Part shown: piece by piece, positions 9,788 to 59,260 of the stretch | Numbering within the stretch: position 1 is the stretch's first letter | Layout of the letters: the number at the start of each line of letters is the position of its first letter | From: an uncultured Fibrobacterota bacterium | GTDB lineage: Bacteria > Fibrobacterota > Chitinivibrionia > Chitinivibrionales > WJKA01 | Assembly (NCBI GenBank): GCA_964589825.1 | Contig: CAZPUS010000001.1 | Span: 100,486 to 164,485, forward strand | Reading direction: 5' to 3' | Length of the DNA stretch: 64,000 nt | Notes under the pieces: generated by a model | Database searches by the model: none | Told to the model about the DNA's origin: nothing | Seen by the model: the letters and a program-made list of their open reading frames with translations, nothing else | Program-made: the position numbers and the translations under genes

Positions 9788-9947
9788 CCTGAATTGAGCC
9801 TTTTTATTTGCGAAACCTGCTTCAATCCGTACTGCGTGCGTTTTACGAGAATGAGAGGGCTCGCATCACGGTTAAGCACTCATTTAAGATGACACAATAA
9901 CAGCACGGGTCATCGTAACCTCAATCCATACAATCACTCGGTTGGGG
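9788..9947 (+). mobile_element. MITE-like dispersed repeat, full-length degenerate copy
   Basis: Left end CCTGAATTGAGC; 9788-9833 matches 59211-59256 at 37/46. Right part is colinear with 50379-50444. Confidence 0.6.
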
Positions 9948-10175
9948 GAGGGTACCCGCAAAAACAACGTGCAAAATGCTATTTTTTATCCATTATATTA
10001 CCTCAAGGGAGTGAGTAACCATAGGCATATTTGCCCGGGCACGACCGGCTCTTTAGCAAATGAACGAGGTATTCCCCCGGGAGTTGGAAGTGACTGATTT
10101 TGCTCATGGAACCTCGTTAGTTAGCTATACCACAGGCACTAAAATCGGACATGGTGACAGAGGATTGGTACCGAG

Positions 10176-10910
10176 ATGAAATATATTACCATATGTCTTC
10201 TTTCTCTTGTTTGCATGGTTCAGGGCAAGGAAACCGTCTACGTACTGCACGGCTACCTCAGCCACCCCATCGCCATGCACGGCACGGTAAAAGAAATCGA
10301 ACGGCACGGCTTCGATGTGGTCAATTACGGCTACAACAGCGTTACCCTCGACATCCGGGATATCGCTACACAACTGAAACAACAGCTGCGTTCTTACGGT
10401 TCAATGGATACGATCCATTTTGTGACGCATTCCATGGGTGGACTGGTGGTGCGCGCGCTTGTACAGCAAAGCAGAAATGATACGCTGATGCCGGTAATCG
10501 ACCGCATTGTCATGCTGACACCGCCGAACAAGGGATCGGAACTCGCAGATTTTTTTTCGCAAATACGGGTCCTGGACTGGATACTTGGTCCCAATTTGGA
10601 TAATATGACGACCGATACCGGTGCGCTGTGGCACACCCTCTCCAAGATGCAGGAACAACGTGTCGGCATTATCGCGGGTATGAGCTTCAGAGATGCCCGA
10701 TTCTCACCAATTATGGAATGTCCCCACGACGGAAAAGTCACCGTCTCCAGGGCAATGCTCAACCGGGGAGAAGACAGAATAATCGTAAAGCAGAATCATC
10801 GCCAGGTTCTTTTCAGCACGCAAATACGAAAAAAGATAGTTTCCTATCTTACCACAGGAAGTTTTCAGTTCCCTCCGGCTTCGAAAACCGATGTCGGGTC
10901 TTCAAAATAA
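10176..10910 (+). CDS. Exported alpha/beta hydrolase (lipase/esterase-like)
   Basis: Signal peptide, LHG oxyanion motif, nucleophile elbow THSMGG, TPPNKGS and HDGKV. Confidence 0.85.
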   Translation: MKYITICLLSLVCMVQGKETVYVLHGYLSHPIAMHGTVKEIERHGFDVVNYGYNSVTLDIRDIATQLKQQLRSYGSMDTIHFVTHSMGGLVVRALVQQSRNDTLMPVIDRIVMLTPPNKGSELADFFSQIRVLDWILGPNLDNMTTDTGALWHTLSKMQEQRVGIIAGMSFRDARFSPIMECPHDGKVTVSRAMLNRGEDRIIVKQNHRQVLFSTQIRKKIVSYLTTGSFQFPPASKTDVGSSK

Positions 10911-10918
10911 TCCGCGGT

Positions 10919-11006
10919 CTCAAATTGAACGCGGGTGATTGGGTTTGAGTAATCTGCTGCGATCAAAACTGCCCTTGCGTCCCCTCAAATAATCGATCGG
11001 TTCAGG
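10919..11006 (+). mobile_element. MITE-like repeat, internally deleted copy
   Basis: Left CTCAAATTGAAC, core AATCTGCTGCGATC (10951-10964), right GATCGGTTCAGG followed by TTAAA. Confidence 0.4.
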
Positions 11007-12410
11007 TTAAAAACCATCCATCAATGAGTGTTTTTTAAGATAGTGCATATGATGTGCACGTGCGATTGTTACGCCGTCGCCGTTGGTTTCGAGCAAATCG
11101 AGTTGATAGATATCGCGAGGACCGAACGACGTGCCGTGTTCGTCGGTCAATACACTCAATTGCGGCTTGGTAAAATGAGTACCGTTGGCTTTGATCACCT
11201 TGGCAATTCTTCCGTCATTGAGTTCCACGATACTCCCGACCGGAAAAAGTGACGCATAGGTGAGAAACGGGACAGTTTTATAATTGCTGATCAGGCCCGC
11301 ACGTGTCATACGTACAATCATCTCCATGGCCTTGTAAGGCATATACGCATCCCGATATGGCCTGCGCGAAGAAAGCGCTTCATACATATCGGCAAGTTGC
11401 ACAATCTGGGCAAATTGATGGATAAGGCGGGAATGACGCTGCTTCGGATATCCCTTCCCGTTAATTCGCTCATGAATCTGATAGGCGATAAGCGGCGTCG
11501 TTGACGGAAGGCGGGTCACGTTTTCGAGTACGTGCAGACCAAGCATGGGATGTTTCATAACCTCGAACCATTCCGATTCTGTCAATTTGCCATTTTTATC
11601 CCATATCCGGGACGGTATCAGCAGCATTCCGATATCGTGCAGCAGCGCACCGATACCTATCTCTTTAACCTGCTCTTCATTGTATCCCATAGCCGCGGCG
11701 ATATTGATACTGAGAAGAGATACGTTCAGGGTATGTGAAAAGAGGTAGGCGTGTGCATTAGAATTACTCCCTGAAATATTAAGCAGTATGTTTCGATCGG
11801 TCAGAAACAGCTCCACAAAAGTCTCCACGACTTTTTTAATCCTCTTGCCATCCACCGACTCCCCTTTAATAAGTGATGTCAGGATATTTTCGACTTCCCC
11901 GGCAGCATTCTCGTACGATTGTGAAACATTTTGCTTGTACTCTTCGCTGCGATCTTCGGGAGCGATTTCTGACGCGCCATCCGAAAGCGGTTTCCCGACC
12001 GGCTTATCAGAGCCACAGGCAGTTTCGAGTTCACGGTCAAGGTCCTGAATCTTGCTGCTTTCAGATAATTGTTCAAAACCCTTTGCTCCCTGCTCAATTT
12101 TCTTCAACTCAGGAGACTGCAAAACCGTCGCTTCCGGCAGGGCTTTCTCTTCTGCTTGCTCCGACGCATCGAACTCCTGTTCGTCGTCCCCGAGATCCTT
12201 TACCTCATAGTCTCGCTCCATGAGACGATTAATCTCTTCATCCTCAGATTCGGAAATATAAACTTTATGGATGTTGCGGCGTTTTAGTGCATCGATATGT
12301 CCCTGTGAAATTGTCACATCTTTTGATATGAGCAGCTCGCCGTTATGAGAAAAATATTGATGCTGTGACACACTTCCGGCTTCGATACTGGAGAGTTCAA
12401 TCTCTTTCAT
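11007..12410 (-). CDS. HD-GYP domain protein (c-di-GMP phosphodiesterase family)
   Basis: LLHDIG and HER.NGKGYP motifs, a typical ~50-aa N-terminal accessory domain and an acidic linker. Confidence 0.9.
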   Translation of the reverse strand: MKEIELSSIEAGSVSQHQYFSHNGELLISKDVTISQGHIDALKRRNIHKVYISESEDEEINRLMERDYEVKDLGDDEQEFDASEQAEEKALPEATVLQSPELKKIEQGAKGFEQLSESSKIQDLDRELETACGSDKPVGKPLSDGASEIAPEDRSEEYKQNVSQSYENAAGEVENILTSLIKGESVDGKRIKKVVETFVELFLTDRNILLNISGSNSNAHAYLFSHTLNVSLLSINIAAAMGYNEEQVKEIGIGALLHDIGMLLIPSRIWDKNGKLTESEWFEVMKHPMLGLHVLENVTRLPSTTPLIAYQIHERINGKGYPKQRHSRLIHQFAQIVQLADMYEALSSRRPYRDAYMPYKAMEMIVRMTRAGLISNYKTVPFLTYASLFPVGSIVELNDGRIAKVIKANGTHFTKPQLSVLTDEHGTSFGPRDIYQLDLLETNGDGVTIARAHHMHYLKKHSLMDGF

Positions 12411-12412
12411 TA
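12218..12412. repeat. 195-bp direct repeat, copy 1 (5' end of the HD-GYP gene)
   Basis: Identical to 15157-15351 except 12360 A vs 15299 G. Confidence 0.97.
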
Positions 12413-12631
12413 TACTGGCTCCGACAAATAATTATAAGCTGTATTTCGAACTCGTACGTAGTCTGAGGGCACAGGGGGAATGCCACGCTATATCTATAAC
12501 ATAAAATATGTTACTCAAAAATAAACCATGTGTACTACCTGCATAATTGATAGCGAATAGTGATGACAAAAAGAGAATACTTCCATGACTGTGGAGGTGC
12601 TGCTCAATTGGCAAGTTATGCGCTTTATATG

Positions 12632-15073
12632 CTATTCAATACATTCGGCAATCTTTATGCTCCAACAGCGGGATCCGTCCATAAATCGTATAATATTTAC
12701 CTGGGCGCTATTACGAGCTATTCGCACTGACTCACCAGCCAAAAGTCTGCCCTGATTCAAAACACGTCCGGAAAAATTGTGCAGATTCCATTGCACAGAG
12801 ATTGCATTCGGATTATACAGAACTAACGAGCGTGCACCGGATTGCACTGAGATTCTCCCGCTTGAAAGCCTCTTTTGATAATCGATTTCCGGTTTCTCCC
12901 CCTTTATGCCTACTACATCTCCCAGTTGGATCCCACCTGCCAATTCTCCGTTGTGATATACCGGCAACCTGGGCAACAATCTCTCTTCGCCCATTATCAG
13001 ACTATCTCCGGAAAAATCATTCGCAATATCGAAATCTCCATTATTGATGTTTTCAAGACGAATAGTCGCTTTTCTCTTATTATTCCAGTTGATGTCGTCC
13101 CATTTTTTAAAGGGCTGAATGGTATCACCAGGGAAGGAAACTTCGATATATCCATCAGTCTCGTCTATCCAGTGAACAGGTGTAATTTCGGCTTCCACAT
13201 TTGACTCTACTATAGAAGCCCCGAAATCTGCGGTATCGGTTCCGGGCTCCACCGAAAGATAATACCGAAACGACAGGCCTCCAGTACGTCTGGCTGGCCA
13301 ACGCGTTCTGTTATGAAGATAGGTTCGTATCTTTACAAAATCATCTGTCTGCTGCAACAACTCTGCGGAAACAAAAAACTCCCTGTCAGTGGTATATAAA
13401 TCATTGGTAAGACGACGTGATTCCGGCTGAGGAAACTCGCTATCCGACAGTACATCTCCTGTTCCATAGTCGTTATCCAACAACCCACTTAGCATTACCA
13501 TGACCTGTGCATTCCAGTAGAGCGCAACTTCACTGGTCTCATAGTCCATTACCCAATTAGGGAAACTGTCATTCGGCGCGTGCGGCCCGGCCAGGACCCC
13601 GCCGTAAAGCACATGACGACATGAATCGGGACGATAAATCATCGGATAGAGTGGTCCATTCTCCTCATACAAAAAATGATCGTGGCTCGCCCATGCACCA
13701 TACGCTCCGCGATGATGTACGGTCTGCCAGTATCCATTATTCTCGGAATCGCTGTAGCCAATCATATAGCTTCGCTGATATGGATTATCCCCCAGAATGT
13801 AGTCAACTTGGCTCTTCACATAATCACAATACTGTTGCTTCTCGCTGGAATCATAAACAGTAAACAGCATACCGAGCGCCGTCGGATAACTCATTACTCC
13901 AATGGTAAACGCGTCAGCCCTGTTCTTACGATAGTGCAACCCCCCAGGGGATGTCACCACACCATTGGGATCGTCAGGATTTGTCTCACGCCATATACGT
14001 GATGTGCTTTCCACTGCATCATATAATCGCTGCCGTGCAGCATCCGAGAGCAATGAATCATTTGCGGCCTCATTCATTAAAAGATGAAGCATACCGTACT
14101 TGGATTTAACCGAGCGCCACCATTTATAATAATTCGCAGAATTGGGGGCCTCATACATTGTTGATTCTACAGCGGCTGCCATTGTAAACAGGGATCCGTC
14201 ACATTCTCCGGGTGTCATTTCCCTGCAGGCACGATTTGCCCAGGTAAGCCCGAGAATCACATTAGGATATGCAAAATAGTCCCGATAATCTATTTCCCGG
14301 TGATCACCATCAGGATCGATAACAAGCTCTTCTCCTTTGTCGTTAATCTCGATAAATTTATCGAGATAATTCCGCGCATACACAGCACATTTTTTGCCCG
14401 TGCGAAATAAAGTATCCGCATATTCCTCCATCTGGATCTCCCCGTGTAGGGAAAAAACCAACGCAGATGCGCAAAGCGCAGCAGCCATGTGTCCAGCGAC
14501 ATCCGACCCCGGTACAACAGTATCACACTTAACTGCTTCACGAACTGCGTAGCCCTCCATCGCTTCAGGAGATCCCCATCCACTGTGTACTCCAGGCTTA
14601 GGTCCCGGTCTACCGCCAACATCCACATAAATCTCATACTCTGAAAAATCATGAAGAGATTCGGGGTTTTTATCCACTATACACCTTAGAAAATAATCGC
14701 AAATATATTTCAGACCGTTTTTAAGCTCATCATCTTGAAAAGAGGATTTATATGCATCAGGAAATTCAATCATGCTCCACGCAAGCAACATTGCAGACCG
14801 TGCCATTGTATTATTCGATTTCCAGTGGTCTCCCGCATCGTACCACCCCCCCGAAAGATCAAGATCGACATCCGCGCCGTCATGGGTATGAGCTGGTCCT
14901 CTCCAGCTAACCCGGTTATTAGTAGAAAGTCTTCCGGATTCCTGACATTCATAAAAATAGATGCCCATCTGAAGTGCCTTTGCATAATTGAACTCTGCCC
15001 CTGCAACGAAAATCGTGCAAAGAGACGCTACCACAAACTTAATCACAGGCAATGTTTTTCGATTATTAATCAT
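12632..15073 (-). CDS. GH9 endoglucanase with CBM3c and a T9SS-like C-terminal domain
   Basis: Signal peptide; DLSGGWYDAGD, HHRGAYG and DYETSEVA GH9 motifs; YLHNRTRWPAR...LSFRYY CBM3c; basic C-terminal sorting-domain-like tail. Confidence 0.9.
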   Translation of the reverse strand: MINNRKTLPVIKFVVASLCTIFVAGAEFNYAKALQMGIYFYECQESGRLSTNNRVSWRGPAHTHDGADVDLDLSGGWYDAGDHWKSNNTMARSAMLLAWSMIEFPDAYKSSFQDDELKNGLKYICDYFLRCIVDKNPESLHDFSEYEIYVDVGGRPGPKPGVHSGWGSPEAMEGYAVREAVKCDTVVPGSDVAGHMAAALCASALVFSLHGEIQMEEYADTLFRTGKKCAVYARNYLDKFIEINDKGEELVIDPDGDHREIDYRDYFAYPNVILGLTWANRACREMTPGECDGSLFTMAAAVESTMYEAPNSANYYKWWRSVKSKYGMLHLLMNEAANDSLLSDAARQRLYDAVESTSRIWRETNPDDPNGVVTSPGGLHYRKNRADAFTIGVMSYPTALGMLFTVYDSSEKQQYCDYVKSQVDYILGDNPYQRSYMIGYSDSENNGYWQTVHHRGAYGAWASHDHFLYEENGPLYPMIYRPDSCRHVLYGGVLAGPHAPNDSFPNWVMDYETSEVALYWNAQVMVMLSGLLDNDYGTGDVLSDSEFPQPESRRLTNDLYTTDREFFVSAELLQQTDDFVKIRTYLHNRTRWPARRTGGLSFRYYLSVEPGTDTADFGASIVESNVEAEITPVHWIDETDGYIEVSFPGDTIQPFKKWDDINWNNKRKATIRLENINNGDFDIANDFSGDSLIMGEERLLPRLPVYHNGELAGGIQLGDVVGIKGEKPEIDYQKRLSSGRISVQSGARSLVLYNPNAISVQWNLHNFSGRVLNQGRLLAGESVRIARNSAQVNIIRFMDGSRCWSIKIAECIE

Positions 15074-15106
15074 ATTGTCTAACCCCTTTGTGATATGATA
15101 AAAAAT

Positions 15107-15349
15107 TTAAGAATATAAATGCCACACTTTTCTTCCCCTAATAGTCAAGTCAATCCCCATGAGACGATTAATCTCTTCATCCTCAGATTCGGAAATATAA
15201 ACTTTATGGATGTTGCGGCGTTTTAGTGCATCGATATGTCCCTGTGAAATTGTCACATCTTTTGATATGAGCAGCTCGCCGTTATGAGAAAAATATTGGT
15301 GCTGTGACACACTTCCGGCTTCGATACTGGAGAGTTCAATCTCTTTCAT
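15107..15349 (-). pseudogene. Truncated duplicate of the HD-GYP 5' end (64 identical aa + 16 unrelated aa)
   Basis: MKEIELSS...EINRLM is identical to 11007..12410; it has its own GGAGCC RBS. Confidence 0.9.
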
Positions 15350-15351
15350 TA
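15157..15351. repeat. 195-bp direct repeat, copy 2
   Basis: 194/195 identity with 12218-12412; offset 2939 bp. Confidence 0.97.
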
Positions 15352-15555: not shown

Positions 15556-17088
15556 CTACCTGTTACACTGCAAATGCATTCCCAGCGTTGTCCCTCCCCA
15601 CACACGATTACCCGTTGTGACCGATTTTCCCCACGGCTGCGATTCACCTCGCGTGGTTCCATCAAGAATCCACGGGATATGCTGGCGCAGTTGGAATTTG
15701 AGCCGTAATCGCTTCTTACGGTACATGAGCGATAGTTGCGGAGTACACATAACTGCACCAACATCCCAGTATTGCTTCTCTCCCAGACTCTCGTATATGG
15801 GAAGGAGGTTGATAATCACTTTTTTCTTTTGTAAGTGCGCACCCGCATACGTTTCAAAGTACCGCGCATGCAGCGAAACCTCCATAGAGCAGCCTTGTAT
15901 ATCGATAGTTTTATCCAGCCGCATACCGATTTCCCGGTACTGCACGCGCGCGTTACTGTATTTATAATCCTGTGGTGCAAATACCGACCATGGTGAAAAA
16001 CTAGACAACTTATAGTGCCCGCGTGGGCTCACGGCATTCAGCATTCCCGCCTTCATGTGCCCGTCTATGCCCCCTTTTATCCGCCACTGTGTATACACAA
16101 CCCCATGACGAACACGGAGCGAATCCATCCTGAAATATTCATACCCTCTGAGCGCCGCATCGTAGCCGATACCCCGTCCGCCGGTTATTGACGCGCGCAG
16201 TCCCATACGCAGCGTGTCGCATAAAAAACCGTGCACGGTTACTCCGCCCCCACCCATATATCCGATTACCTCAGCGTGTGACGGCATCGCATTGTCGGGA
16301 TATATCCATCGGGACGTTTTCAGCCGATATGTGGCGGCCCGAAGATCAAAACCAACACCGGTGGTATGCGCACTGCATTGCAGTGCAACTCTTTTACGGT
16401 GAAAAGAGAGAGGGAAGCTGCGGTAATTCCCTGTCGTCCGGTTTATAAGGCGGCCAGCATAAGATACAACAGGTGCGCTGGACACCCGTGCCCTCAGAGT
16501 AACCGCACGACACTGGTATCGCGGCGAAACAGCCGCAAACCACGGCCCGTTCCAAAACCACTCCTGCGGGCGATCCCGCAACCATACATACATGGAATCG
16601 TTCATAAATTGCGGGGATCGCATCCCTCCGGTATGCAGGTAGAAATCAACCGGACCAATTGAGAATTCACTCCCCACAAGAACAATACTCGTTCGTGTAC
16701 GTGCGGTAACACGGTAATCTTCCGACCTCCTGCAGTAGGTCCCATTATGACGGGCTACAGAAAAGTACATACCCAGAGACGAGTGTTGCCCCCGCAGCGT
16801 TCGCATTCCATGAATTCGAACCAGACCCACCCTGGAATAACACGTATCCTTCGGCGAATCACTCCACTCATATAAAAACGGCTGATAGTCCAACGCAACC
16901 GAAAACGACTGGGAATCGCTGCATATATCGGAAGGAACGCAGAGACCGAAATCACGTGACGTCACCACAGGCAGCAATTCCTGCCCGAAACTATTGATTG
17001 CCGCACCAACACCACACAACACCAAAAAACAAAGGCCGAAGAGAAATCTCTCCGGCCCTGGTTTGCTGTAAAACAATTGCCACCTCAT
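15556..17088 (-). CDS. Hypothetical outer-membrane beta-barrel-like protein
   Basis: Signal-like segment and many alternating aromatic/Gly strands. ATG 17088 overlaps the TGA of the upstream lipoprotein (ATGA). Confidence 0.6.
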   Translation of the reverse strand: MRWQLFYSKPGPERFLFGLCFLVLCGVGAAINSFGQELLPVVTSRDFGLCVPSDICSDSQSFSVALDYQPFLYEWSDSPKDTCYSRVGLVRIHGMRTLRGQHSSLGMYFSVARHNGTYCRRSEDYRVTARTRTSIVLVGSEFSIGPVDFYLHTGGMRSPQFMNDSMYVWLRDRPQEWFWNGPWFAAVSPRYQCRAVTLRARVSSAPVVSYAGRLINRTTGNYRSFPLSFHRKRVALQCSAHTTGVGFDLRAATYRLKTSRWIYPDNAMPSHAEVIGYMGGGGVTVHGFLCDTLRMGLRASITGGRGIGYDAALRGYEYFRMDSLRVRHGVVYTQWRIKGGIDGHMKAGMLNAVSPRGHYKLSSFSPWSVFAPQDYKYSNARVQYREIGMRLDKTIDIQGCSMEVSLHARYFETYAGAHLQKKKVIINLLPIYESLGEKQYWDVGAVMCTPQLSLMYRKKRLRLKFQLRQHIPWILDGTTRGESQPWGKSVTTGNRVWGGTTLGMHLQCNR

Positions 17089-18968
17089 TGCTCGACAAAC
17101 GGCGTAAAAAAGTCTATCCATTCCTGCCGTGTGGTCATGTCAGGGAAAATGCCGCCGAATGTGTAGTCCTTAAAATAGGGAAATGCTTTTTTAAGCATTT
17201 CTTCTTCACTCATTTCCCCGTCTTCCATAAAAAACATCTTGTCATAATCGATCACGTTGTTCTGATCATCGACGTATTTCATAGCCACATAGCTGATAGT
17301 CGAATCGTACTCCACTTCTGTGGTATACCCCTGGGTAAGGGATATCTGGAATGAATACGAATTCCTTTCGATGGTGTCTATTCTCGAGGCCGGGATATCG
17401 ACGATCACGGTATCGTAATCACTTAAATAATGATACAACGTGCTGTCCTCGTACGATAAAGTCCGGGAATAATAACCATCCCTGATACTCTGGAGTCTGT
17501 CATCTCCTGAAACGAGCGTATACCTGGGCCAGCGATCTTTGAGGTCCTTTGCCGGATTAGTGAAGAATTTCGACAGATCGATCTTTATGGTTACATTGAT
17601 ACTGTCAATTGTCTCATTAAACTCATAGGGTCCGGCAAGCAATTCCAAAATAAAATCCATCAACGCGCTCGGACTTGCAAAATTGGCCGACAGGTCCGCA
17701 CTGAAACCTTCCTTGCGCATATCGCTTTCAAACGACGCCATGTCCGATTCCATATCGATCACATCAGTATTGACGAGAAGATCATCGTTCTGATCGTCGG
17801 TTTCATCACGTATCGCACTAAGGCCGTTCTTTATGCCGGTCGGCACTTTCTTTAAATCCTCGTACGCTACCTCGAAATAGTTGTTTTTCATCTCAAGGAA
17901 CCCGTCTCGTGTCAGGTTGTATGCCTGGACCTCAGCCATTTTGCGGCTGATCGCGCCTCCGTCATAAATAGAGGTCTTATACAACGTATCGTTTGACAGG
18001 CGATACCTGATACTGCTTGAATTCTCCATAGTATCCGCGATGTCGATCATGTCGTCGATCCAGCGCATATCCTTTGAGCCATCAGGTGAATGCAAATCAT
18101 AATCATAGATACAGAACATCGCCAGCATCGCTCTGGTGAGACGTACACCGGAAGAAAACAGCATGAGATCACCGCGATCTAACTCTGCAGAATCCCCGTT
18201 AAGGGTAACGATCAGCGACATGTCGTTTTCATTTATCAACCGCTGCGAAGCGGCAAGAACCTGATTGAGTTTTGGGATTACCCCGTGTTTTATTATTCCC
18301 TGAATAAACGACACCGTCAGAAAACGCGGAAAAGCAGGACGTTTTGTCGCCGCGAGCAGCACCTTTGGTGATTCTGCCAGCAATACACGTCCCACACCAT
18401 TTATCCCGGACCTTGCATAGGTATTTTTTAATATTCCGGAAGAAAGCGCAGTAGCCGGAGCTGCCGATTTTGCGCTGCGTTTTGCTGCAGCGGGCATACG
18501 TGTCTCCGAGGCAGATGTATCGGAATAATACTCATCGATCTCGTTGATATATGCCTCGATAGAATCGATAAGCATCTGTATGGAATCATTACTGTTAAGA
18601 GACAACAAACTTGCAACGATCAATCCGAAATTCGCCTTTACATGCGATGTGTCCTGTGCAACCGCCGCGCCGAATCCCCGACGCAGCCCGTCAAAATCGA
18701 TTGCATACATATCCTTTTGATCTTCACAGCTATCCATTTTTTCTACCCGGCTCATTAAGAGGGTATACATCGAATCGATCCCTGCATCAGAGGTATTTGC
18801 ATCCGGATCGATATCGGTCGGAATATCGCCCGGACTGTCATCGTTCACGATATCATCGGATGGTGCGAGTACATTGTCGTCACCCTCGCCGTCAGGAAAA
18901 CATGATACCAGCAACAACGAAACAACCACCACTACCAAACCGCTACCCCATAGGTATGTGTACTTCAT
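17085..18968 (-). CDS. Hypothetical lipoprotein
   Basis: Lipobox LLVSC at Cys23, acidic linker, strong AAGGAGG RBS. Confidence 0.85.
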   Translation of the reverse strand: MKYTYLWGSGLVVVVVSLLLVSCFPDGEGDDNVLAPSDDIVNDDSPGDIPTDIDPDANTSDAGIDSMYTLLMSRVEKMDSCEDQKDMYAIDFDGLRRGFGAAVAQDTSHVKANFGLIVASLLSLNSNDSIQMLIDSIEAYINEIDEYYSDTSASETRMPAAAKRSAKSAAPATALSSGILKNTYARSGINGVGRVLLAESPKVLLAATKRPAFPRFLTVSFIQGIIKHGVIPKLNQVLAASQRLINENDMSLIVTLNGDSAELDRGDLMLFSSGVRLTRAMLAMFCIYDYDLHSPDGSKDMRWIDDMIDIADTMENSSSIRYRLSNDTLYKTSIYDGGAISRKMAEVQAYNLTRDGFLEMKNNYFEVAYEDLKKVPTGIKNGLSAIRDETDDQNDDLLVNTDVIDMESDMASFESDMRKEGFSADLSANFASPSALMDFILELLAGPYEFNETIDSINVTIKIDLSKFFTNPAKDLKDRWPRYTLVSGDDRLQSIRDGYYSRTLSYEDSTLYHYLSDYDTVIVDIPASRIDTIERNSYSFQISLTQGYTTEVEYDSTISYVAMKYVDDQNNVIDYDKMFFMEDGEMSEEEMLKKAFPYFKDYTFGGIFPDMTTRQEWIDFFTPFVEQ

Positions 18969-19072
18969 ATACCCTCCTTAATGGAAAATTAAAAAATGGA
19001 TTGTATCCTATACTGTAAATAAAATAGTACATTCTGCCGGCTGCATCCGGTGAAAGTAAACGTTGCCCCGTA

Positions 19073-19138
19073 ATTTTCGAGAACACAATAGCGGCAGGAC
19101 TCACCGCAGCGTTCATCAAAACAACCGCTCAATTAAAG
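19073..19138 (+). mobile_element. MITE-like repeat, right-half copy
   Basis: 19073-19134 matches 50379-50440 at 54/62, ungapped. Confidence 0.7.
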
Positions 19139-19623: not shown

Positions 19624-19650
19624 ACGACTGCGACAATTGGCAACGCCATC

Positions 19651-42957: not shown

Positions 42958-43041
42958 AATCGTGTCCTTTCGACACCACCCAATTTAGGTTATACGCACC
43001 CGACCCCCTCGTCGATATCTTTTTTTTATAAAATAAATTTA

Positions 43042-50122: not shown

Positions 50123-50270
50123 ATGATCCTCCTACCTTTACAATGATAAAAATGACAGTAATTATCTTATTTATTCATTAAAGGGACTCACGCTTAATAC
50201 AAAGTCATGTCTCTTCCACAAGTAACGTGATATGCCCTTTATATATTGTGTAAATCCTCTCCGACTTAAA

Positions 50271-50444
50271 CCTAACTTGAGCGTTTTGGGTGGCGCAATC
50301 TGCTGCAATCCGCTCTACTCTTATATGCCCGGGTATATGCCCGGAAATCATAAAGGCAACCAGCAAGATTGCTCCATGATTTTCAAGAACATAATAGCAG
50401 CACGTCTCACAGCAGCTTTCATCAAAACAATCGCTCAATTGTGG
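50271..50444 (+). mobile_element. MITE-like element, best-preserved copy with a 5-bp TSD
   Basis: Imperfect TIRs CCTAACTTGAGC / GCTCAATTGTGG, flanked by TTAAA at 50266-50270 and 50445-50449; internal TATATGCCCGG duplication. Confidence 0.75.
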
Positions 50445-50552
50445 TTAAAAAAAGGATATTACCCCATAAACACGTCTGCACGGGAAAATATCCTTTACCA
50501 CTTAGCCTTACCACCTGTCCACGCCTAACTTTCAAAACGCCGTTTTACTTTG

Positions 50553-51921: not shown

Positions 51922-53223
51922 TTATTGCGAAAACACGAATGGGTATTTTACCGTTGTTACATCACCAGGCTTGTCGATTTTACCAAAGTTCCATCTTTTT
52001 ATAATGGTAACAATTTTGTCCTCAAGCTGGCTATCATTTATGGTACTACTGACCACTTTACAAAAGATAACTTTTCCATATTCGTCAATGGAAAACTTGC
52101 ATATAATTTTACCACCGAGCCCCGGCTTATCTCGAAGTCTTCTGTTATACGCATACCGGAGTGCCGGAAGGTTCTGCATTACGACACGCCGAATGCTCGC
52201 TTTGCTTCGTCCTCCGCTGATGGCGCCACCCTGGGAGAAATCGGGCCGTGCCATTTCGAGTTTTTTACCGCTTTTTTTCAACCCAAGGGAACTCTCTTCA
52301 CCTCCCATAAGACTTCCAACCAAATCGTCTATACCACCGCTTCCCCCACCAAATCCGCTGCCGTATCCGGCTCCATATCCAATACCGGCAGCACCCTTTC
52401 TACCCGATCCGCCGCTTCCTCCGGATTTGAGTCCTCCCATTCCTTTGAGAACCGCATCAATACCCGAGGCAAAACCGCCTTTTCCGAACACATCTGCGGA
52501 AGCGACTGTTTTTCCTTTAACTTTTCCTGATATTATTCCAAGTACACCTTTTCGTGTTACGCGAGCTCTCGGATCTCCTCCACCACCGGTTTTACCTCCT
52601 GCCCCTTTTTTCTTCGTCTCTTTCATTTTCTTCTTTTCAGTCTCTATTTTCTCCTCTTCCTTCTCTTTTTCCTTTTTAATAAGCTCTTCTGGGATGCTTA
52701 CTGCCACTTTTGCTTTTCGCTGTTCGGGCATCTTCTCGTAAAAATCTGCTTTAATCTTGGTATATTCGTAATTCGAAACCCAGAATCCACATATAAGGCC
52801 TAGAATTATGCATACGATTTCAAGATTACGCAGTCGTTTATTCTCTTCAACATGAAATATATCTTTTCGCTGCGTCACCTTATTTGTGTATTCCTGATCC
52901 GTCAAAACCCTTCCATCTTCTTCGTCGTCGTCATCATCTGCCCGGCCAGTAGGCGTTGTTGCGGCAGAAACTGACGATGCACCGGCCTCAACCTCTTCAC
53001 CCGCCAGTTCAACAGTGCCAACCTCTGCACCAACACCTTCAAATTTTTCCTTGAGCGCAGCGGCTTCTTCTTCAGTCGCCTCTTTTTTTATGCATATATC
53101 TTTCTGCATCAATGCAGACTCTACCACACCTTTCTCGGTCCCGGACCATTTGGCGACTTCTTCTGCAATCGTCCGGGCACGCTGCGGATCTTCACACTTT
53201 TTAATAATTACTTTTGACTTCAT
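51922..53223 (-). CDS. AgmX/PglI (GltG-like) TonB-C-terminal-domain protein
   Basis: Cytoplasmic N-domain, one TM, K/E helix, Gly-rich linker, SIRRVV...LRYAYNRRLR..PGLGGK...F.I...G.V C-domain. Confidence 0.85.
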   Translation of the reverse strand: MKSKVIIKKCEDPQRARTIAEEVAKWSGTEKGVVESALMQKDICIKKEATEEEAAALKEKFEGVGAEVGTVELAGEEVEAGASSVSAATTPTGRADDDDDEEDGRVLTDQEYTNKVTQRKDIFHVEENKRLRNLEIVCIILGLICGFWVSNYEYTKIKADFYEKMPEQRKAKVAVSIPEELIKKEKEKEEEKIETEKKKMKETKKKGAGGKTGGGGDPRARVTRKGVLGIISGKVKGKTVASADVFGKGGFASGIDAVLKGMGGLKSGGSGGSGRKGAAGIGYGAGYGSGFGGGSGGIDDLVGSLMGGEESSLGLKKSGKKLEMARPDFSQGGAISGGRSKASIRRVVMQNLPALRYAYNRRLRDKPGLGGKIICKFSIDEYGKVIFCKVVSSTINDSQLEDKIVTIIKRWNFGKIDKPGDVTTVKYPFVFSQ

Positions 53224-53246
53224 GAGTAATAACCCTTATTTTGGGA

Positions 53247-53750
53247 TTAACCTTCTCTTTGCATAACAGCGAACCGCATGTTATTATATCCGACTTCACC
53301 ACACGTTCGCATCACTTTATACATCACATCGAACTCCATGTTCTTATCTATCTGCACAATCACGTTCCCCTCTACCTCGTTTTTCGCCCCCATCTTTACA
53401 AGCTGCTGCTCTTCAGCATAATACTTTTTCAGGGTTTCGGCAAGTTTGGGGATTATCTGTTTCACTTTTTCCTCAGACATATTACGGACCTCTTCTGTGG
53501 GCACAACCGGATCATGCTCCACAAGCAGCATGTCGTTTGTCACCTCAATCTGCAAATTCACTTCCTTTGGCTTTTTATCGGAAATGGAATTAGGCAGGAC
53601 AAGGTCTTCCGCATTTGTCAAAATATTACCTTCAGCCGAAAACTGTTTGAGAAGAAATACAACCATAATCGTAAACATATCCATCATAGGGGTTATATTC
53701 AACCCCCCCGGTTTTTTGACCTTAGTTGCTCTACCTCTTTGAATAGCCAT
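53247..53750 (-). CDS. ExbD/TolR family (AglQ/S-like)
   Basis: LNITPMMDMFTIMVVFLL with the conserved Asp; IVQIDK...YKVMRTC..GY. Confidence 0.92.
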   Translation of the reverse strand: MAIQRGRATKVKKPGGLNITPMMDMFTIMVVFLLKQFSAEGNILTNAEDLVLPNSISDKKPKEVNLQIEVTNDMLLVEHDPVVPTEEVRNMSEEKVKQIIPKLAETLKKYYAEEQQLVKMGAKNEVEGNVIVQIDKNMEFDVMYKVMRTCGEVGYNNMRFAVMQREG

Positions 53751-53752
53751 TA

Positions 53753-54559
53753 TCAGCTCCTCATTTTTGCGATTTCAATTTGAGGATATCCTGCCATACG
53801 TGCAGCATCCATTACCTGCACGATCTTATCGTACAGCACCTCATTTTCCGCTGCCACGATAATCCTATCCTTATCATCGGCATCCTTGAATCTCTCTTTG
53901 ATTTTCATCAAACGGCTTTTAAGCAAATCGTATGCCGAAAGCTTCTGCAAACTGTATTTCGACGGGTCCTTAATTACGATTGCATGGCGCGGGTGAGTGA
54001 TTACATATACAGAATCCCCAACGGAGACCTCTTTTAAAGGAGTCCCGTTAAAATCAGTGATAAGGTGCCCTCTCTGAGAATAGAGAGCTTTCTGCACTTC
54101 TTTGGTTTTTGGATCGATTACATACAGCCAGATATCGTAGCGTTCGTGAATGGTAAGTTTTCTTCCGGTTTGAGGATGCGTCGGTGTCTCCTCAGGTTTT
54201 TTCGGATTGTACTTAACAGTCATCTCTTCGCCGCCTTCTTTGGCGATGTAATGATGATACTCCTGGTACCAGATACTTGGCAAAAATCCACCCTTAGCGC
54301 CCATTGTAATCGCAGAATCGGTGATAATTGCAGTCAGCATCAGCTTATTCGCTTTTTCCTCTTTTGGCCTTTCCTTAACCGTCTGCTGTGTCTGAGAACC
54401 TCTTCCTTCAGGCAGATTAATCTCGATAATCGCGACTTTCGCGAACTCCGCCTGGAGCAGAAGAACCGGCACCAGCACCGCCATAATACACATAAATGGT
54501 ATAATATCTACATCTTTGGTTCCCGAGGATTTCTTTCGTCCTCTTTGTGCCATATTCAA
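53753..54559 (-). CDS. Long ExbD/TolR-family protein with an internal insertion
   Basis: DIIPFMCIMAVLVPVLL TM; C-terminal IIVAAE.EVLYDKIVQVMDAAR.AGY; ~120-aa insert. Confidence 0.85.
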   Translation of the reverse strand: MNMAQRGRKKSSGTKDVDIIPFMCIMAVLVPVLLLQAEFAKVAIIEINLPEGRGSQTQQTVKERPKEEKANKLMLTAIITDSAITMGAKGGFLPSIWYQEYHHYIAKEGGEEMTVKYNPKKPEETPTHPQTGRKLTIHERYDIWLYVIDPKTKEVQKALYSQRGHLITDFNGTPLKEVSVGDSVYVITHPRHAIVIKDPSKYSLQKLSAYDLLKSRLMKIKERFKDADDKDRIIVAAENEVLYDKIVQVMDAARMAGYPQIEIAKMRS

Positions 54560-54595
54560 CCCCTTGTTATACTATACATACTTCGTAAATGAGGC

Positions 54596-55225
54596 TTATT
54601 CTTCTACTATATTCATAAGCTTGGTGGTCTTTTCATCCATTTCTTCCGAAATTTTATCTGCACGACCACTCAACACACCATGAAGAAGAATGGTAGGAAC
54701 CGCCACAATAAGACCGAAAAGTGTAGTTGTCATAGCCACAGAAATACCAGATGCAAGTGCCTGTGCACGCTGCGCTGCAGGAACGTTTGCGACTGACTCA
54801 AATGCAAGCATCAGACCATAAATAGTTCCGGTAAGTCCCAGAAGAGTGGCAAGGTTCGCAAGAGTATTCAAAAGTGGCAGCATACGATTAATGCGCGGCG
54901 TCTCGGTAAGAAAAACTTCGTCAACCGATTTCTGCACCTGTTTGCGTCCCTGTTTGCGATTTTCAAGAACACTCGCAACACCTTTGGCCAATGGAGTATC
55001 GAGAGATTTTGCATATTTGAGTGCCTTGTCGTATTCACCAGCTTTGAGGTATTTGCCGATCGATCCCATAAAAGCAGCGTTTTTGCTCCCGCATTTAAAA
55101 TATAGAAACCAGACTCTCTCGATAACCAGTGCAAGAATAGCAGCCAGCACCAGAAGAATAACCCACATAATCGAGCTACCTGCGGAAGTGAAACCATCAA
55201 CAATAAAATGAAATAGCTTAAGCAT
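54596..55225 (-). CDS. MotA/TolQ/ExbB (AglR-like) proton-channel subunit
   Basis: Three TMs; ATLLGLTGTIYGLM.AF and GISVAM.TT.FGL.VAVP. Confidence 0.93.
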   Translation of the reverse strand: MLKLFHFIVDGFTSAGSSIMWVILLVLAAILALVIERVWFLYFKCGSKNAAFMGSIGKYLKAGEYDKALKYAKSLDTPLAKGVASVLENRKQGRKQVQKSVDEVFLTETPRINRMLPLLNTLANLATLLGLTGTIYGLMLAFESVANVPAAQRAQALASGISVAMTTTLFGLIVAVPTILLHGVLSGRADKISEEMDEKTTKLMNIVEE

Positions 55226-55328
55226 AACTCCTCCTTAAAAGTGTTAAAAATGCATAGGTGCATTAAATAATAGATAAAATATTTTTTTCCACGTACAATT
55301 TCAATAATAAATCAGACCTTTCGATCTA

Positions 55329-58300
55329 TTACTTCCATAACATCCAGAACTGCCACCACGGCTTACCCGTTTGATCCTCCTTTTCTACAGGCTTTTTATC
55401 AATTGATATTATCCTTTCTTCAGCTGCCACAGAGTCTGCAATCGCTGCAGAGTCCTGTGCAGCGGCCTGCTGAGCAGAATCAATCTCCGGCGTCCATTTT
55501 TCAATATCAACCTCTACAAACTCGGATGTTGGAGCGATATTTTCCAATCGAGCCTGCGTGCTGTCAAGCCACTCGTTTTCGGCAATTCCCAGCTGCTTTG
55601 CCACCCGAACCGCTTCTTCATATTTGGGTATCGATTGCTGGACTGCCTGCAGATTTTTATCCTGCAACTGTTCCTGATAAATGCGCCTTTCTTCTTTGTT
55701 GAACTCCCGGGGAATAGGCGCGTTAGCGAATGTCTGCCCCACACGTTCAAAAAGCTTGGCCCGTTCGAATGCACATTTCATGAGCATATCTTTGGACTGC
55801 TTAACGATATCGCTCGTAAAATTATCCTCATGCGCTTTCTTAATATTCCATTGAAATTGTTCGATCGCTTTCTGATAGTATTTATCCAATTGCATGAGTA
55901 TTTTAATTTTTCCGGCCACTTTTTCTGATTCGTTGCCGAACAGTGTCTGGTTTTCCATCGCGTTCGCCATCTGTACGAAGCTTTCTCCTATTCGGTAGGT
56001 CGAACGCATCACCCATTCACGTATACCCGTCTTGATAGCTTTTGTGTACTTCTCACCGACTTTCGAAAGCGCCTCGACCTTTTCTTCGACCTTTTGTTCA
56101 ACCGCACGTTCACTGCGTCCGGTAAGCGCGATATCATTGTATCGCTTCTGCAAAATCTCACCGATACGAAAATATGCTTTCGCGATTATGGTTTTGTCAT
56201 AATCCGCCTTGCGAGTAAACTTTTCGTACAGTGTAACAGCGCCGAGATAATTCTCGCGTGCCGCTTCGAGATTATCGAGCTTGAAATACGCATCTCCCGC
56301 TTGTACCAGCGCATGTGTCTGTTTCGCTTTATTATCGAAATTTTCGGCAAATTTGATATACGCGGCTGCGGCGTTTTCGTACTCTTCCATTTTTTCGTAG
56401 CACAGGCCGATTGAGTACGCGCCTTCGGAGGCCCATTCGCTTTCGGGATATTTTCCGGCAAGAATCTTGTATACGTGTATCGCTTTATTATAGGCATCCG
56501 CTTTTTCGTATACAAGACCGGCATTATAAAGCGCCTGTGGTGTACGGGGATCCTCACCGTAGCGTTTATATACCATTTCGAATACCTCACCCGCTTTCCG
56601 AGGCTTTTCAGCTTTCTGAAAGGACTCCGCTGCATGGGAAAGAGAGGGTATGGCATAATCGGCTGTGGGTATGGTATCTGCTGCCTCGATATATACCTGT
56701 GCAGCTTTTTCGTACGCCTCAATCTTTTTGTAATTTTCGGCAGCTCGAATAAATGAGCTTTCGAGCAATTTTACGGTCTTCATCCGTTTTTTCGAAAAAT
56801 TGACCGACATCTTCGCAAAGGTTTCTGCCGCCTTCTGCCAACTTTCCGCTTCTTCATACGCCGCACCCGCATCAAACCACGCATTGATGGCCACTTTTGT
56901 CTGCGGATATTTTGAATAAATAGTCTTAAACACATCCGCTGCACCGATATAATTGCGGTTTTTCTTCATTTCATCCGCTTTTGCATACATTGCACTTGCA
57001 GCCAACTCCGCGATATTCTGATAATCGGACTGACCTTTTTCCATAACCGCCATAAGACTGTCGTATCGCTGTATAGCGAGTTCGTAATTACCGAGTTTCA
57101 CGAATGCCTTGGCAAGCATCTTGTACGCATCGATAAATACATCAGCTTTTTTATAATGATCAACGATGGCCTGAAAATTATTTATAGCTTCTTCATAGCG
57201 CTGCGCAAGGTAATTGATGTTTCCCGCAGTATAAACAACCTTGGATACGTGCTCGCTTTCAGGAAACTTTTCTCTATATTTTTCGATAAGACTGAGCATT
57301 TTCTGCGTAACCGGCAACTCATACGCTTCTTTGTCATCAAGTTTTTTATCCGCTTTTATCTTTTTTCGCTGCGTATTAAGCGCCACTATTGCATTATACC
57401 CCGCATCTTTCTGAGGTATTACATTTGGCCCTTTTTTCTGTTTTTTCTGCTTTTTCTTCTCGTACTCGACCGCATCCTGGTAGGCAAAACTGTCTACCTT
57501 TGCCTTGTATTCAGGAAAGGTCGATATTTCCGCCATTGCAACTTCCCAGAAATAATCGGCAGCCTTCTCGTATTGTTTCAGCGTATGATATATTTCAGCA
57601 CTATAATACGTAAACTCGTAATTCTGCCATTTCTCCTCAGGAAACCGCTCCATGTAATCGTGATATCGCTCAAGTGCTTTTTTATAAAGGGAACGCTTTT
57701 TTTCCTTCTGCGCCATTGAATGATAGTAAACTCCCATATTGTACAATGCGCTTTTGACGTGTTCCCTGGATCTATCGATCACCGCTTTTTCATTACTGTT
57801 TTTCTCGTACCATTCGGTTCCGGATTTGTAATTATCAACCAGTATTTTGCGTTGCTCGTTCGCTTTTTCCGGTTTTTTCTGAATCATATAACATTCTATA
57901 AGCTTCTGTCGCGCAATCGGCGCTTCCCGGTAATACGGGTATTTTTCCAAGGCCGTATGAAACGCCTCTATCGCCTTGTCATACTGTCCGTGCTTGCGGT
58001 TTTTGAAACCGATGGTATACATCACATAGGCTTCGTAGGGCCGGTGCCCTACCTTTTTAAAAAACTTAACCGCACGTTCCGGACCGTTTGGAATATCGGA
58101 AAATGAAATCGCGAGAAATTCCTTTGCCTCGCCAATAAACTCCTTCTTGATGTATTCCCCTGAATTGCATTTTTCAATATAAGTGAAGAAAAGATCTATA
58201 GCTTTGTCGAACGCTGCCTGATTATAATACATTTCCGCCTTACGATAATGCGTCATCTCCCATACTTCTATGTTAACATCTTTTTCTTCAACTTTTTCCA

Positions 58301-58958
58301 AATGCTTAATAGCCTTGGGATAATCTCGCTGGTTATAATAATAATCAGCAAGATGGAAATGAGCATACGAGGCTCTCGGACTCTGCGGCCATTCTTTAAC
58401 GAGCTCTTCATACGCTTCGGCCGCCCGGTCGAACTGTCCGCTTAAAAGACTTATATGTCCTATCTGGTAAGCAGCTTCATCGCCTTTTTCATAATCGGGA
58501 TATTCTTCGAGCACACGGTTATACATCTCAAACGCTTTTGAATAATCAGGTTTTGGATTTTGAGGCCGTGGTCCCTGCTGAGTCCGCTCCCACTCATCCA
58601 TAGCCTTGCTGAACTCTTTTTGGGCTTCTATAAAGTCACTTTTTGCCTTTTTGTAATACAACTTGCCCAATGTTATCAATACCCGTGCACAGCGAGTGTT
58701 TTTTTTCTGATCGCAGCCCTGAGCAATATTTTCGTATTTTGCAATAACCTCGCTGTAATCCTGATCAGCCTGCACCTCCTGCTCAAGCTTCTGCTGCATA
58801 TCCTGGTTAAGCTCCTGTTTTTTGCGTTTGAGCGCTTCCAGCTTTCGCTTCAGTTTTTCTTCCTTGGATAATCCGTACGATGTTGACGCTGCACCGAATA
58901 CCAGTACAACGCACATGAATAATCTTGCGTATCCGGCTAACTTTTTATTGAGTCTCAT
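55329..58958 (-). CDS. Large exported TPR protein (AgmU/GltD-like)
   Basis: 1209 aa, signal peptide, many TPRs; directly upstream of the exbB/exbD/exbD/gltG-like genes. Confidence 0.85.
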   Translation of the reverse strand: MRLNKKLAGYARLFMCVVLVFGAASTSYGLSKEEKLKRKLEALKRKKQELNQDMQQKLEQEVQADQDYSEVIAKYENIAQGCDQKKNTRCARVLITLGKLYYKKAKSDFIEAQKEFSKAMDEWERTQQGPRPQNPKPDYSKAFEMYNRVLEEYPDYEKGDEAAYQIGHISLLSGQFDRAAEAYEELVKEWPQSPRASYAHFHLADYYYNQRDYPKAIKHLEKVEEKDVNIEVWEMTHYRKAEMYYNQAAFDKAIDLFFTYIEKCNSGEYIKKEFIGEAKEFLAISFSDIPNGPERAVKFFKKVGHRPYEAYVMYTIGFKNRKHGQYDKAIEAFHTALEKYPYYREAPIARQKLIECYMIQKKPEKANEQRKILVDNYKSGTEWYEKNSNEKAVIDRSREHVKSALYNMGVYYHSMAQKEKKRSLYKKALERYHDYMERFPEEKWQNYEFTYYSAEIYHTLKQYEKAADYFWEVAMAEISTFPEYKAKVDSFAYQDAVEYEKKKQKKQKKGPNVIPQKDAGYNAIVALNTQRKKIKADKKLDDKEAYELPVTQKMLSLIEKYREKFPESEHVSKVVYTAGNINYLAQRYEEAINNFQAIVDHYKKADVFIDAYKMLAKAFVKLGNYELAIQRYDSLMAVMEKGQSDYQNIAELAASAMYAKADEMKKNRNYIGAADVFKTIYSKYPQTKVAINAWFDAGAAYEEAESWQKAAETFAKMSVNFSKKRMKTVKLLESSFIRAAENYKKIEAYEKAAQVYIEAADTIPTADYAIPSLSHAAESFQKAEKPRKAGEVFEMVYKRYGEDPRTPQALYNAGLVYEKADAYNKAIHVYKILAGKYPESEWASEGAYSIGLCYEKMEEYENAAAAYIKFAENFDNKAKQTHALVQAGDAYFKLDNLEAARENYLGAVTLYEKFTRKADYDKTIIAKAYFRIGEILQKRYNDIALTGRSERAVEQKVEEKVEALSKVGEKYTKAIKTGIREWVMRSTYRIGESFVQMANAMENQTLFGNESEKVAGKIKILMQLDKYYQKAIEQFQWNIKKAHEDNFTSDIVKQSKDMLMKCAFERAKLFERVGQTFANAPIPREFNKEERRIYQEQLQDKNLQAVQQSIPKYEEAVRVAKQLGIAENEWLDSTQARLENIAPTSEFVEVDIEKWTPEIDSAQQAAAQDSAAIADSVAAEERIISIDKKPVEKEDQTGKPWWQFWMLWK

Positions 58959-59210
58959 TCTCTACATTCTCCACAATAGCATTAACACATGAAAAACTAA
59001 ATCTATTTCAATTAATTTATACGCTTAAGTTCCGTTTATATAAAAATAATACTGTCCCCGAACAAATTACAAATAATATCCATAATTCAGCTGTATCACA
59101 TCACCTCAGCCATTCCTTCATCGCCCTCCTGCACATCTCTTTTTGAAAGCTCTTGTATTGCCTGGCATCCGCTTGGTTATACTTCGTGTATTCGTGCAAT
59201 ATTATTTATA

Positions 59211-59260
59211 CCTGAATTGAGCGGTTTTGTCCGCGGAATCTGCTGCAATCCGCACTAATC
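59211..59260 (+). mobile_element. MITE-like repeat, left-half copy
   Basis: 40/50 identity to 50271-50320; starts CCTGAATTGAGC after TTATA. Confidence 0.7.

Follow-up and report, generated by a model that had tools for sequence, protein, structure and literature searches.

Bacterial MITEs such as Correia/NEMIS of Neisseria, RUP of Streptococcus pneumoniae, MITEAba12 and the MaeMITEs of Microcystis are small, non-coding, multi-copy elements that are mostly intergenic and carry TIRs and a target duplication. Correia and RUP have a TA duplication and are linked to IS families other than IS1380. Among other small repeats, REP/BIME sequences are palindromes of 20-40 nt that have neither TIR-defined ends nor a target duplication and are moved by RAYT transposases. 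Tn3-type ends are ~38 bp long and start with GGGG. Many MaeMITEs occur without a partner IS in the same region (PMC2779907), and MITEAba12 stands among the comparable bacterial MITEs (PMC6382973). Tn3-derived TIMEs, like the element described here, are non-autonomous and have an AT-rich 5-bp duplication (PMC4133298), and the inverted repeats of Tn3 measure 38 bp (PMC2887853). In the IS1380 family, TIRs are ~14-24 nt long and the 4-5-bp duplications are often AT-rich, of the form T...A (PMC2887853; PMC3281130); a 5-bp duplication, TATGA, has been reported for ISEcp1 (PMC2887853) and a 5-bp direct repeat for IS1247 (PMC3281130). In the titles and abstracts of 12 papers mentioning both IS1380 and MITEs, no IS1380-derived MITE appears.

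The window analysed here is a 64-kb stretch of DNA from an uncultured sediment bacterium of Chitinivibrionales (phylum Fibrobacterota), and an element of ~160 bp without coding sequence occurs in it in six decaying copies. These copies form a MITE family with defined ends, repeats, a target duplication, a high copy number, an intergenic bias, and IS1380-like ends and duplication length; we infer that a transposase and transposition act for the family. Taken as a whole, the 160-bp repeat family is, with good probability, a MITE for which an IS1380-type transposase is supplied in trans. The family is real, apparently undescribed, and an ordinary kind of thing. The query for nhmmer was a 160-nt consensus rebuilt from contigs of the source metagenome. 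The features of the family in the window, with the evidence for each, are as follows.

9788-9947, plus strand: full-length older copy, 160 bp (nhmmer 9788-9943, E 2e-12; alignment)
10919-11006, plus strand: probable short copy, internally deleted (repeat family D2, 62%)
19058-19138, plus strand: right half, consensus ~80-160 (nhmmer 19058-19135, E 6e-15)
50266-50270, no strand: left copy of the target duplication, TTAAA (sequence inspection)
50271-50444, plus strand: full-length copy, 174 bp, ~86% identity to the consensus (nhmmer 50272-50442, E 5e-28)
50445-50449, no strand: right copy of the target duplication, TTAAA (sequence inspection)
59211-59260, plus strand: left half, consensus 1-50 (nhmmer 59212-59260, E 3e-10; exact TIR match)
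59437-59598, minus strand: sixth copy, full-length, strongly diverged (nhmmer E 1e-5; alignment)

With a consensus of 160 nt and copies of 50-174 bp, the element has the size of a MITE (<~300-600 bp, without coding sequence of its own). A preliminary description of this DNA had listed five copies, four of which proved highly significant (nhmmer E 5e-28 to 3e-10) and one of which, 10919-11006, was marginal. It had overlooked the minus-strand copy at 59437-59598, and it had placed the start of the right-half copy at 19073, which actually lies near 19058. Its pairwise identities were exact (40/50 for 50271 vs 59211, 37/46 for 9788 vs 59211, and 54/62 for 19073 vs 50379), and nhmmer with the consensus recovered all window copies but 10919-11006, with E values down to 5e-28. 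Furthermore, a repeat search of the window arranged the copies in two families, D2 for left halves and D3 for right halves, the latter including 19058-19138 at 85% identity to the right half of 50271-50444. The sixth copy, which shares one 775-bp gap with 59211-59260, reached a local alignment z of 8.7 vs shuffles. For 10919-11006, which takes up the interval separating two convergent genes, the evidence was divided: a two-block chain scored 50 vs a background maximum of 44 (~3200 windows), and nhmmer with the 160-nt consensus gave no match. The TTAAA said to lie on its right is present and overlaps the stop codon of an HD-GYP gene. We regard this stretch as a probable family copy.

The 160-nt consensus, CCTGAATTGAGCGG...CCGCTCAATTCAGG, forms an imperfect palindrome, and its TIR extends over at least 14 nt, CCTGAATTGAGCGG, rather than the 12 nt first proposed. 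The left-half copy 59211-59260 carries this 14-nt repeat in perfect form. The ends of the element are sharp in runs X1, X2, X3 and X5, where many contigs concur up to CCTG and CAGG; outside these, contig agreement is ~0.5, and the flanks are AT-rich and non-conserved, tending to read ...TAAA before the element and T(T/A)AA... after it. This agreement from CCTG to CAGG followed by divergence, in four runs, bears out the original reading of the repeat as a non-autonomous element. Copy 50271-50444 has imperfect TIRs (CCTAACTTGAGCG / CCACAATTGAGCG) and, internally, a 12-nt stretch duplicated in tandem (TATATGCCCGGG x2). The TTAAA described on both of its sides was found at 50266-50270 and 50445-50449, and a chance origin of these flanks, raised beforehand as a possible refutation, has P = 0.0016, the probability that two random intergenic 5-mers of the window are identical. 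The duplication is retained at this window copy only, and older copies have lost theirs. In 9788-9947, for example, an intact left TIR (CCTGAATTGAGCC) stands opposite a degraded right end (CACTCGGTTGGGG), and no recognisable target duplication is left.

The coding fraction of the window is 0.90 and all copies (6/6) fall within the non-coding 10%, so that the description of the family as intergenic stands for every one of them. Their gene contexts are divergent, convergent and tandem, and their orientation is not constant; 17085-18968 (minus strand) and a CutA gene at 19312 (plus strand) diverge from the promoter region in which 19058-19138 sits. The sole ORF across a copy, 59389-59727 (112 aa), overlaps 59437-59598. 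Such ORFs across the MITE copies matched no Pfam family, and among 1.84 billion representatives 59389-59727 had no real homologues. No transposase family matched any window ORF of at least 80 aa, which agrees with the earlier statement that the window has no transposase.

The intergenic position of every copy, one of them between convergent genes, and the long hairpin of the consensus (DNA fold -39.5 kcal/mol, z -8.8) are also what might be expected of a host-selected repeat, namely a structured small RNA, a hairpin that acts as a terminator or stabilises mRNA, or a regulatory palindrome of the REP/ERIC type, whose spread would be incidental. We consider this very improbable. The fold of copy 50271-50444 is no more stable than those of its shuffles (z -1.7), and in the full-length copies the consensus structure reaches -5.7 kcal/mol, with the TIR stem alone surviving and the internal stems broken; this comparison covered only four sequences and has low power. 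No Rfam match was obtained even at E <= 1, which, together with the loss of the hairpin in older copies, argues against a structured RNA. Promoter-like and terminator-like matches over the copies are at chance level, and the mixed gene contexts and orientations also speak against a host function, while the sharp ends and target duplications mark transposition. REP/BIME identity was rejected because a 160-nt element with TIRs and a 5-bp duplication is unlike the REP definition, and identity with Tn3-derived TIMEs because the ends read CCTG, not GGGG.

In the source run, the element is covered at 40-100 times the single-copy depth, in line with the suggestion of many copies genome-wide. As the depth comes from a metagenome, related strains may make the number of copies per genome look higher than it is. 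Depth was 855 vs 8.85 at the right end in run X1, 566 vs 7.6 at position 19093, and ~300 vs 2.6 in run X5. Such depths in independent runs, together with nhmmer E values reaching 5e-28, refute the notion that there is no repeat family at all and only chance or low-complexity similarity. That notion could draw on the marginal copy at 10919 and on the short TIR pattern, which alone is not enriched (8 matches with <= 3 mismatches vs 5.8 expected), but we accord it practically no probability. On an NCBI contig of 68.7 kb, a DUF2391 gene has a further copy upstream of it. Among 5.8 billion proteins, only P0121 matched the consensus translated in six frames, and this annotated protein begins inside a copy.

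Sites orthologous to those of the window were sought in a ~92%-identical relative in run X5. There, 50271-50444 has a same-site ortholog without the 12-nt duplication and 9788-9947 likewise has a same-site ortholog; the site of 10919 was unalignable and the other sites lie outside X5 coverage. No clean empty site was thus found in this relative for any window copy. Given that two copies are common to the relative, several are truncated or diverged, and the hairpin has been lost, the window copies are old. They are probably neutral relics and not working parts of the host.

The ends of the element were compared with ten annotated elements of the IS1380 family, whose TIRs include CCTGAATTATTCAT, CCTGAATGATTTCT, CCTGAATAATTCAT (twice), CCTAGATTCTACGT, CCCACATTTCCC, CCCGCCTTATTCA (twice) and CCCGGATTTCTC. 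About 8-9 of the ten have CC-initiated TIRs, and four (L060, L064, L065 and L066) start with CCTGAAT, as does the window MITE. The remaining six start otherwise (three with CCCG, one with CCTA, one with CCCA), including the IS1380A prototype, L068, which has no CC-initiated TIR. Duplications were seen at four of the ten, with 5 bp at L064, L065 and L067 and 4 bp at L069. The likeness to IS1380 ends that had been suggested, provisionally, for this element is therefore upheld by the CC-initiated TIRs, the CCTGAAT start and the matching 5-bp duplication. On the other hand, the TIR shares 7-8 terminal bases with IS1380 ends and 13/21 overall with the closest sampled member, so another family with similar ends could be responsible.

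Candidates for such a family would be other 5-bp-duplicating transposases, i.e., IS1634, ISH3, some IS3 or IS481, or an unclassified one. The likeness to IS1380 is confined to CCTGAAT(T) and scattered positions, six of the ten sampled elements start differently, and no transposase was found in the window or beside 54 metagenome matches to the TIR, all of which would suit this alternative. The terminal bases are, however, TG for IS3 and IS481, GGT for ISH3 and GGGG for Tn3, and the alternatives listed thus differ from the element in this respect. Moreover, CC ends, exact CCTGAAT (four sampled elements) and 4-5-bp duplications co-occur in the IS1380 family (PMC2887853; PMC3281130). We therefore regard mobilisation by another family as unlikely but not negligible, and judging from the sequence features the MITE family would most likely have been mobilised by an IS1380-type DDE transposase. 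The element itself, ~160 bp of non-coding DNA between the TIRs CCTGAATTGAGCGG...CCGCTCAATTCAGG, is immobile alone. Binding of both repeats would fall to a DDE transposase from elsewhere, most likely that of an IS1380-family IS whose ends are the same, and insertion would take place at AT-rich T-N-N-N-A sites, where the staggered cut would then be repaired into the 5-bp duplication.

Sister elements that share the 20-nt end CCTGAATTGAGCGGTTTT(T)G were detected in other metagenomes (L003/L036, 159 bp; L045, 119 bp; L005, 63 bp; L010, 165 bp; L039, 82 bp). Their interiors are unrelated to the window family, and the TIR is common to both. Three have perfect 5-bp duplications (TTGAA, TATAA and TAACA); along with TTAAA at the one intact window copy, these accord with the AT-rich 5-bp target proposed from the window. 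At least one sister element is hosted by Desulfobacterales, which belong to another phylum (Desulfobacterota), and in orthologues of the Desulfobacterales locus TTGAA occurs once at the end of the gene, followed by an unalignable downstream flank. Around the 54 metagenome TIR matches, there was no adjoining transposase-like ORF and no second inverted end within 6 kb; about a dozen of the 54 were rejected as elements, being a conserved coding motif instead. In L033, the match to the TIR pattern falls in a long stop-free frame. The TIR pattern had one match among viral contigs (L057), on a contig of the same length as that of L033. No autonomous IS with these ends turned up in the window, among the 54 TIR matches or in plasmids, where a blastn search with the TIR region gave nothing relevant. 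The exact right end had no match in the metagenome or viral scans, nor did the interior pattern in viral contigs. A genome-contig scan with the left-half pattern yielded only a chance match, in Erythrobacter, and the right-half search of sequencing runs matched only the source study. In the literature, the TIR string retrieved unrelated primer sequences only.

A conserved 20-nt end, CCTGAATTGAGCGGTTTT(T)G, on several interiors in at least two phyla may represent the first recognised group of MITEs from IS1380-type (piggyBac-related) transposons, a proposal that we make tentatively and hold at somewhat less than an even chance. Such a distribution, with interiors that are unrelated to one another, would imply a horizontally spreading IS1380-like transposase that repeatedly spawned MITEs. 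With the common end, the transposase responsible can be probed for precisely in sediment bacteria that belong to different phyla. To our knowledge, Chitinivibrionales are known almost only through metagenome-assembled genomes, and the window family documents mobile-element activity in them. In this lineage it accounts for contig breaks and for some gene calls that are spurious or extended too far, P0121 being one example, and annotation of this Chitinivibrionales lineage should mask it. The understanding of MITEs in general is unchanged by the window family.

Among known systems, the IS1380 family (ISEcp1, IS1247, IS1678, ISSsu5 and unnamed members) is like the element in its CC start, which in four of the ten sampled members extends to CCTGAAT. 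Its members are unlike the element in being autonomous, 1.6-1.9 kb long and equipped with a transposase gene, whereas the element is 160 bp, gene-free and mostly palindromic, and the TIRs of the two differ past the first 8 bases. Tn3 ends are unlike those of the element, which read CCTG and span ~14-20 nt. Compared with Correia/NEMIS, RUP, MITEAba12 and the MaeMITEs, the window family is distinct in its sequence, its host phylum (Fibrobacterota, Chitinivibrionales) and its putative transposase family.

The repeats in the window form a real MITE family of the uncultured Chitinivibrionales bacterium, apparently undescribed until now, which a putative IS1380-type transposase most likely mobilised; MITEs as such are already known, and this family adds to them. 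The five stretches listed in the preliminary description are present at the coordinates claimed, its by-eye identities (40/50, 37/46 and 54/62) were exact on recount, and TTAAA directly flanks 50271-50444 on each side, as it had reported (P = 0.0016 for identity of two random intergenic 5-mers in this window). Repeat grouping of the window separated a left-half family, D2 (9783, 10920, 50266 and 59206), from a right-half family, D3 (9872, 19063 and 50369). The window was then re-scored by nhmmer with a 160-nt consensus, giving these copies:

50272-50442, E 5e-28
19058-19135, E 6e-15
9788-9943, E 2e-12
59212-59260, E 3e-10
59441-59596, - strand, new, diverged, full-length, E 1e-5

The boundaries of this new sixth copy are 59437-59598 (local-alignment z 8.7). 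The stretch at 10919-11006 is graded only a probable copy, because nhmmer did not report it and its two-block chain score (50) barely exceeds the background maximum (44). The bare 14-nt TIR (<=3 mismatches) is unenriched in the window (8 matches versus 5.8 expected), and the family is defined by longer similarity instead. One TIR-like 14-mer, CCTAAATTGGGTGG (42976-42989, - strand, 3 mismatches), lies in an 84-bp intergenic gap; beyond it the sequence does not resemble the element (z 0.3), and for this reason it was taken as chance.

For depth, ends and consensus, Logan contigs of the source run X1 (SRR13334649, whose words cover 98% of the window) and of the runs X2, X3 and X5 were placed on the window. 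Depth rises sharply at every copy: in X1 the right end of 50271-50444 has a depth of 855 versus 8.85, and position 19093 one of 566 versus about 7.6; ~40 times single-copy depth comes from the 59211 half, and X5 shows about 300 versus 2.6. The expectation of many copies genome-wide is thereby borne out at 40-100 copies per genome, an upper estimate since depth was measured in a metagenome. Contigs agree as far as ...GCTCAATTCAGG on the right side and, on the left side, from CCTGAATTGAGCG onwards; outside these ends agreement drops to about 0.5 and the flanks are AT-rich, tending to TAAA before the element and T(T/A)AA after it. The consensus, its interior recovered from the contigs' loose ends, is CCTGAATTGAGCGGTTTTGTCCGCGGAATCTGCTGCAATCCGCACTACTCTTATATTCTCGAAAATCATGAGACAACCAACAAGTTGCCCCATGATTTTCGAGAACACAATAGCAGCACGGCTCACCGCAGCTTTCATCAAAACAACCGCTCAATTCAGG. 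For the greater part it is an imperfect palindrome, with a DNA fold of -39.5 kcal/mol (z -8.8). Frame 0 is stop-free on both strands (53 codons each), which in a palindrome does not clearly exceed chance. On an NCBI contig of 68.7 kb, the annotated start of a 239-aa DUF2391 protein (P0121) lies upstream of a copy, and its reading frame continues through that copy (LSGCFDERCGEPCCYCVLENH...); the start call is probably over-extended.

A relative about 90-93% identical to the window, in the tidal-flat metagenome X5, has the 50271 and 9788 copies in the same positions, so both insertions are older than a divergence of roughly 7-10% at the nucleotide level. A 12-nt tandem duplication inside the 50271 copy (50316-50339, TATATGCCCGGG x2) is missing from the X5 orthologue (12 nt left out at 50322) and is thus a recent, lineage-specific change. 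No contig of X1-X3 or X5 skips a copy exactly and the X5 relative is unalignable at 10919, so none of the window's copies yielded an empty site.

The coding fraction of the window is 0.90, and all six copies fall in the other 10%, which is more AT-rich (GC 41.6% versus 47.3%); the intergenic location described earlier thus holds, as does the absence of a transposase, no ORF of >=80 aa in the window matching any transposase family. A 112-aa ORF over the sixth copy has neither a Pfam family nor a real homologue among 1.84 billion representatives. Gene contexts are divergent, convergent and tandem, and among the genes on either side are a GH9 cellulase with CBM3 (12632-15073), ThiC, CutA, glycolysis genes, flagellin and a TPR/ExbB/ExbD/TonB/OmpA cluster. 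Rfam, even at E <= 1, returned three tRNAs only; the fold of 50271-50444 is no more stable than that of shuffled sequences (z -1.7); when the consensus and the three full-length copies are aligned, the terminal stem alone survives; and promoter-like and terminator-like matches over copies are at chance level. Together with the varied gene contexts, these results are in keeping with insertions in decay rather than with a structure under selection.

Several neighbouring features were also recorded. The - strand cluster (51922-63605) has two genes for very large TPR proteins (1209 and 783 aa), between which lie two MITE copies, and further encodes ExbB, two ExbD-like proteins, one TonB-C and one OmpA/beta-helix protein; Pfam matches the last to TSP_3 (thrombospondin type 3 repeat) weakly and below threshold, and its gene contains 99-nt tandem units x3 (62488-62714). 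Named homologues of the HD-GYP protein (11007-12410) come from MAGs of Chitinivibrionales or Chitinispirillaceae, and the window's version of it is found on an NCBI contig of 179 kb; the host is accordingly placed as an uncultured Fibrobacterota bacterium. A direct duplication (12209-12412 and 15148-15351; 204 nt, 98% identity) repeats the opening ~67 codons of the HD-GYP gene (start 12410) upstream of the cellulase gene, where they form an 80-aa ORF (15107-15349, -); source-run contigs break at each copy.

The exact right end has no match in JGI metagenomes or viral contigs. The 19-22-nt end, searched as the pattern CCTGAATTGAGCGG(0-3)TTTTG, matches 54 loci, none with the window element's interior and none adjoined by a transposase-like ORF; about a dozen were rejected as elements, being a coding motif. 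Among the loci are several short elements that carry this end, as inverted copies, at each of their boundaries:

L003/L036, 159 bp
L045, 119 bp
L005, 63 bp
L010, 165 bp
L039, 82 bp

Three such elements have perfect 5-bp duplications (TTGAA, TATAA, TAACA). The loci include distinct MITE-like families of other metagenomes (L003/L036, L005, L009, L045 and L054; L010/L018; and L039 separately) with the 20-nt end in common and unrelated interiors. The gene beside L003 has 92% identity to proteins named as Desulfobacterales, another phylum, so the end is common to different phyla. Three orthologous loci of this gene carry a single TTGAA at the gene end (TTGAG in one), and homology ends precisely at the element's left boundary; because the downstream flank is unalignable, these loci do not count as clean empty sites. 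One recurring locus on six metagenome contigs (L006, L019, L025, L043, L050 and L052) has one perfect CCTGAATTGAGCGGTTTTTG beside motA/motB-like genes, with neither a second end within 8 kb nor a transposase, and could be either a solo end or a match by chance.

The preliminary description had likened the CC-initiated ends and 5-bp AT-rich duplications to IS1380-family elements. ISEcp1 on pCTX-M3 has IRL CCTAGATTCTACGT and IRR CCTAAATTCCACGT. A 5-bp duplication, TATGA, is published for ISEcp1 (PMC2887853), and IS1247 is listed as having a direct repeat of 5 bp (PMC3281130). Inverted repeats were sought around the transposase genes of nine further annotated IS1380-family elements from plasmids:

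L060, Ligilactobacillus, TIR start CCTGAATTATTCATACTTTTC, no duplication seen
L064, Tetragenococcus, TIR start CCTGAATGATTTCTAAA, ATATC (5 bp)
L065, IS1678, TIR start CCTGAATAATTCATA..., AGTCA (5 bp)
L066, ISSsu5, TIR start CCTGAATAATTCATA, no duplication seen
L059, IS1247-like, TIR CCCACATTTCCC / CCTGCATTCCCC, no duplication seen
L067, Halomonas, TIR start CCCGCCTTATTCA, GTTAA (5 bp)
L070, ISSp1, TIR start CCCGCCTTATTCA, duplication not called
L069, Nostoc, TIR start CCCGGATTTCTCACAA, ATAC (4 bp)
L068, IS1380A prototype (tenth element), no CC-initiated repeat found

The CCTGAAT start of the MITE is identical in 4 of the 10 sampled elements, and its 5-bp duplication is consistent with the family. 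The proposed likeness stands for ends and duplication length, a correspondence that does not in itself identify the enzyme. The TTAAA and T...A targets of the MITE are similar to TTAA, the target of piggyBac. IS1380 transposases have served as the prokaryotic outgroup of piggyBac (PMC10813416).
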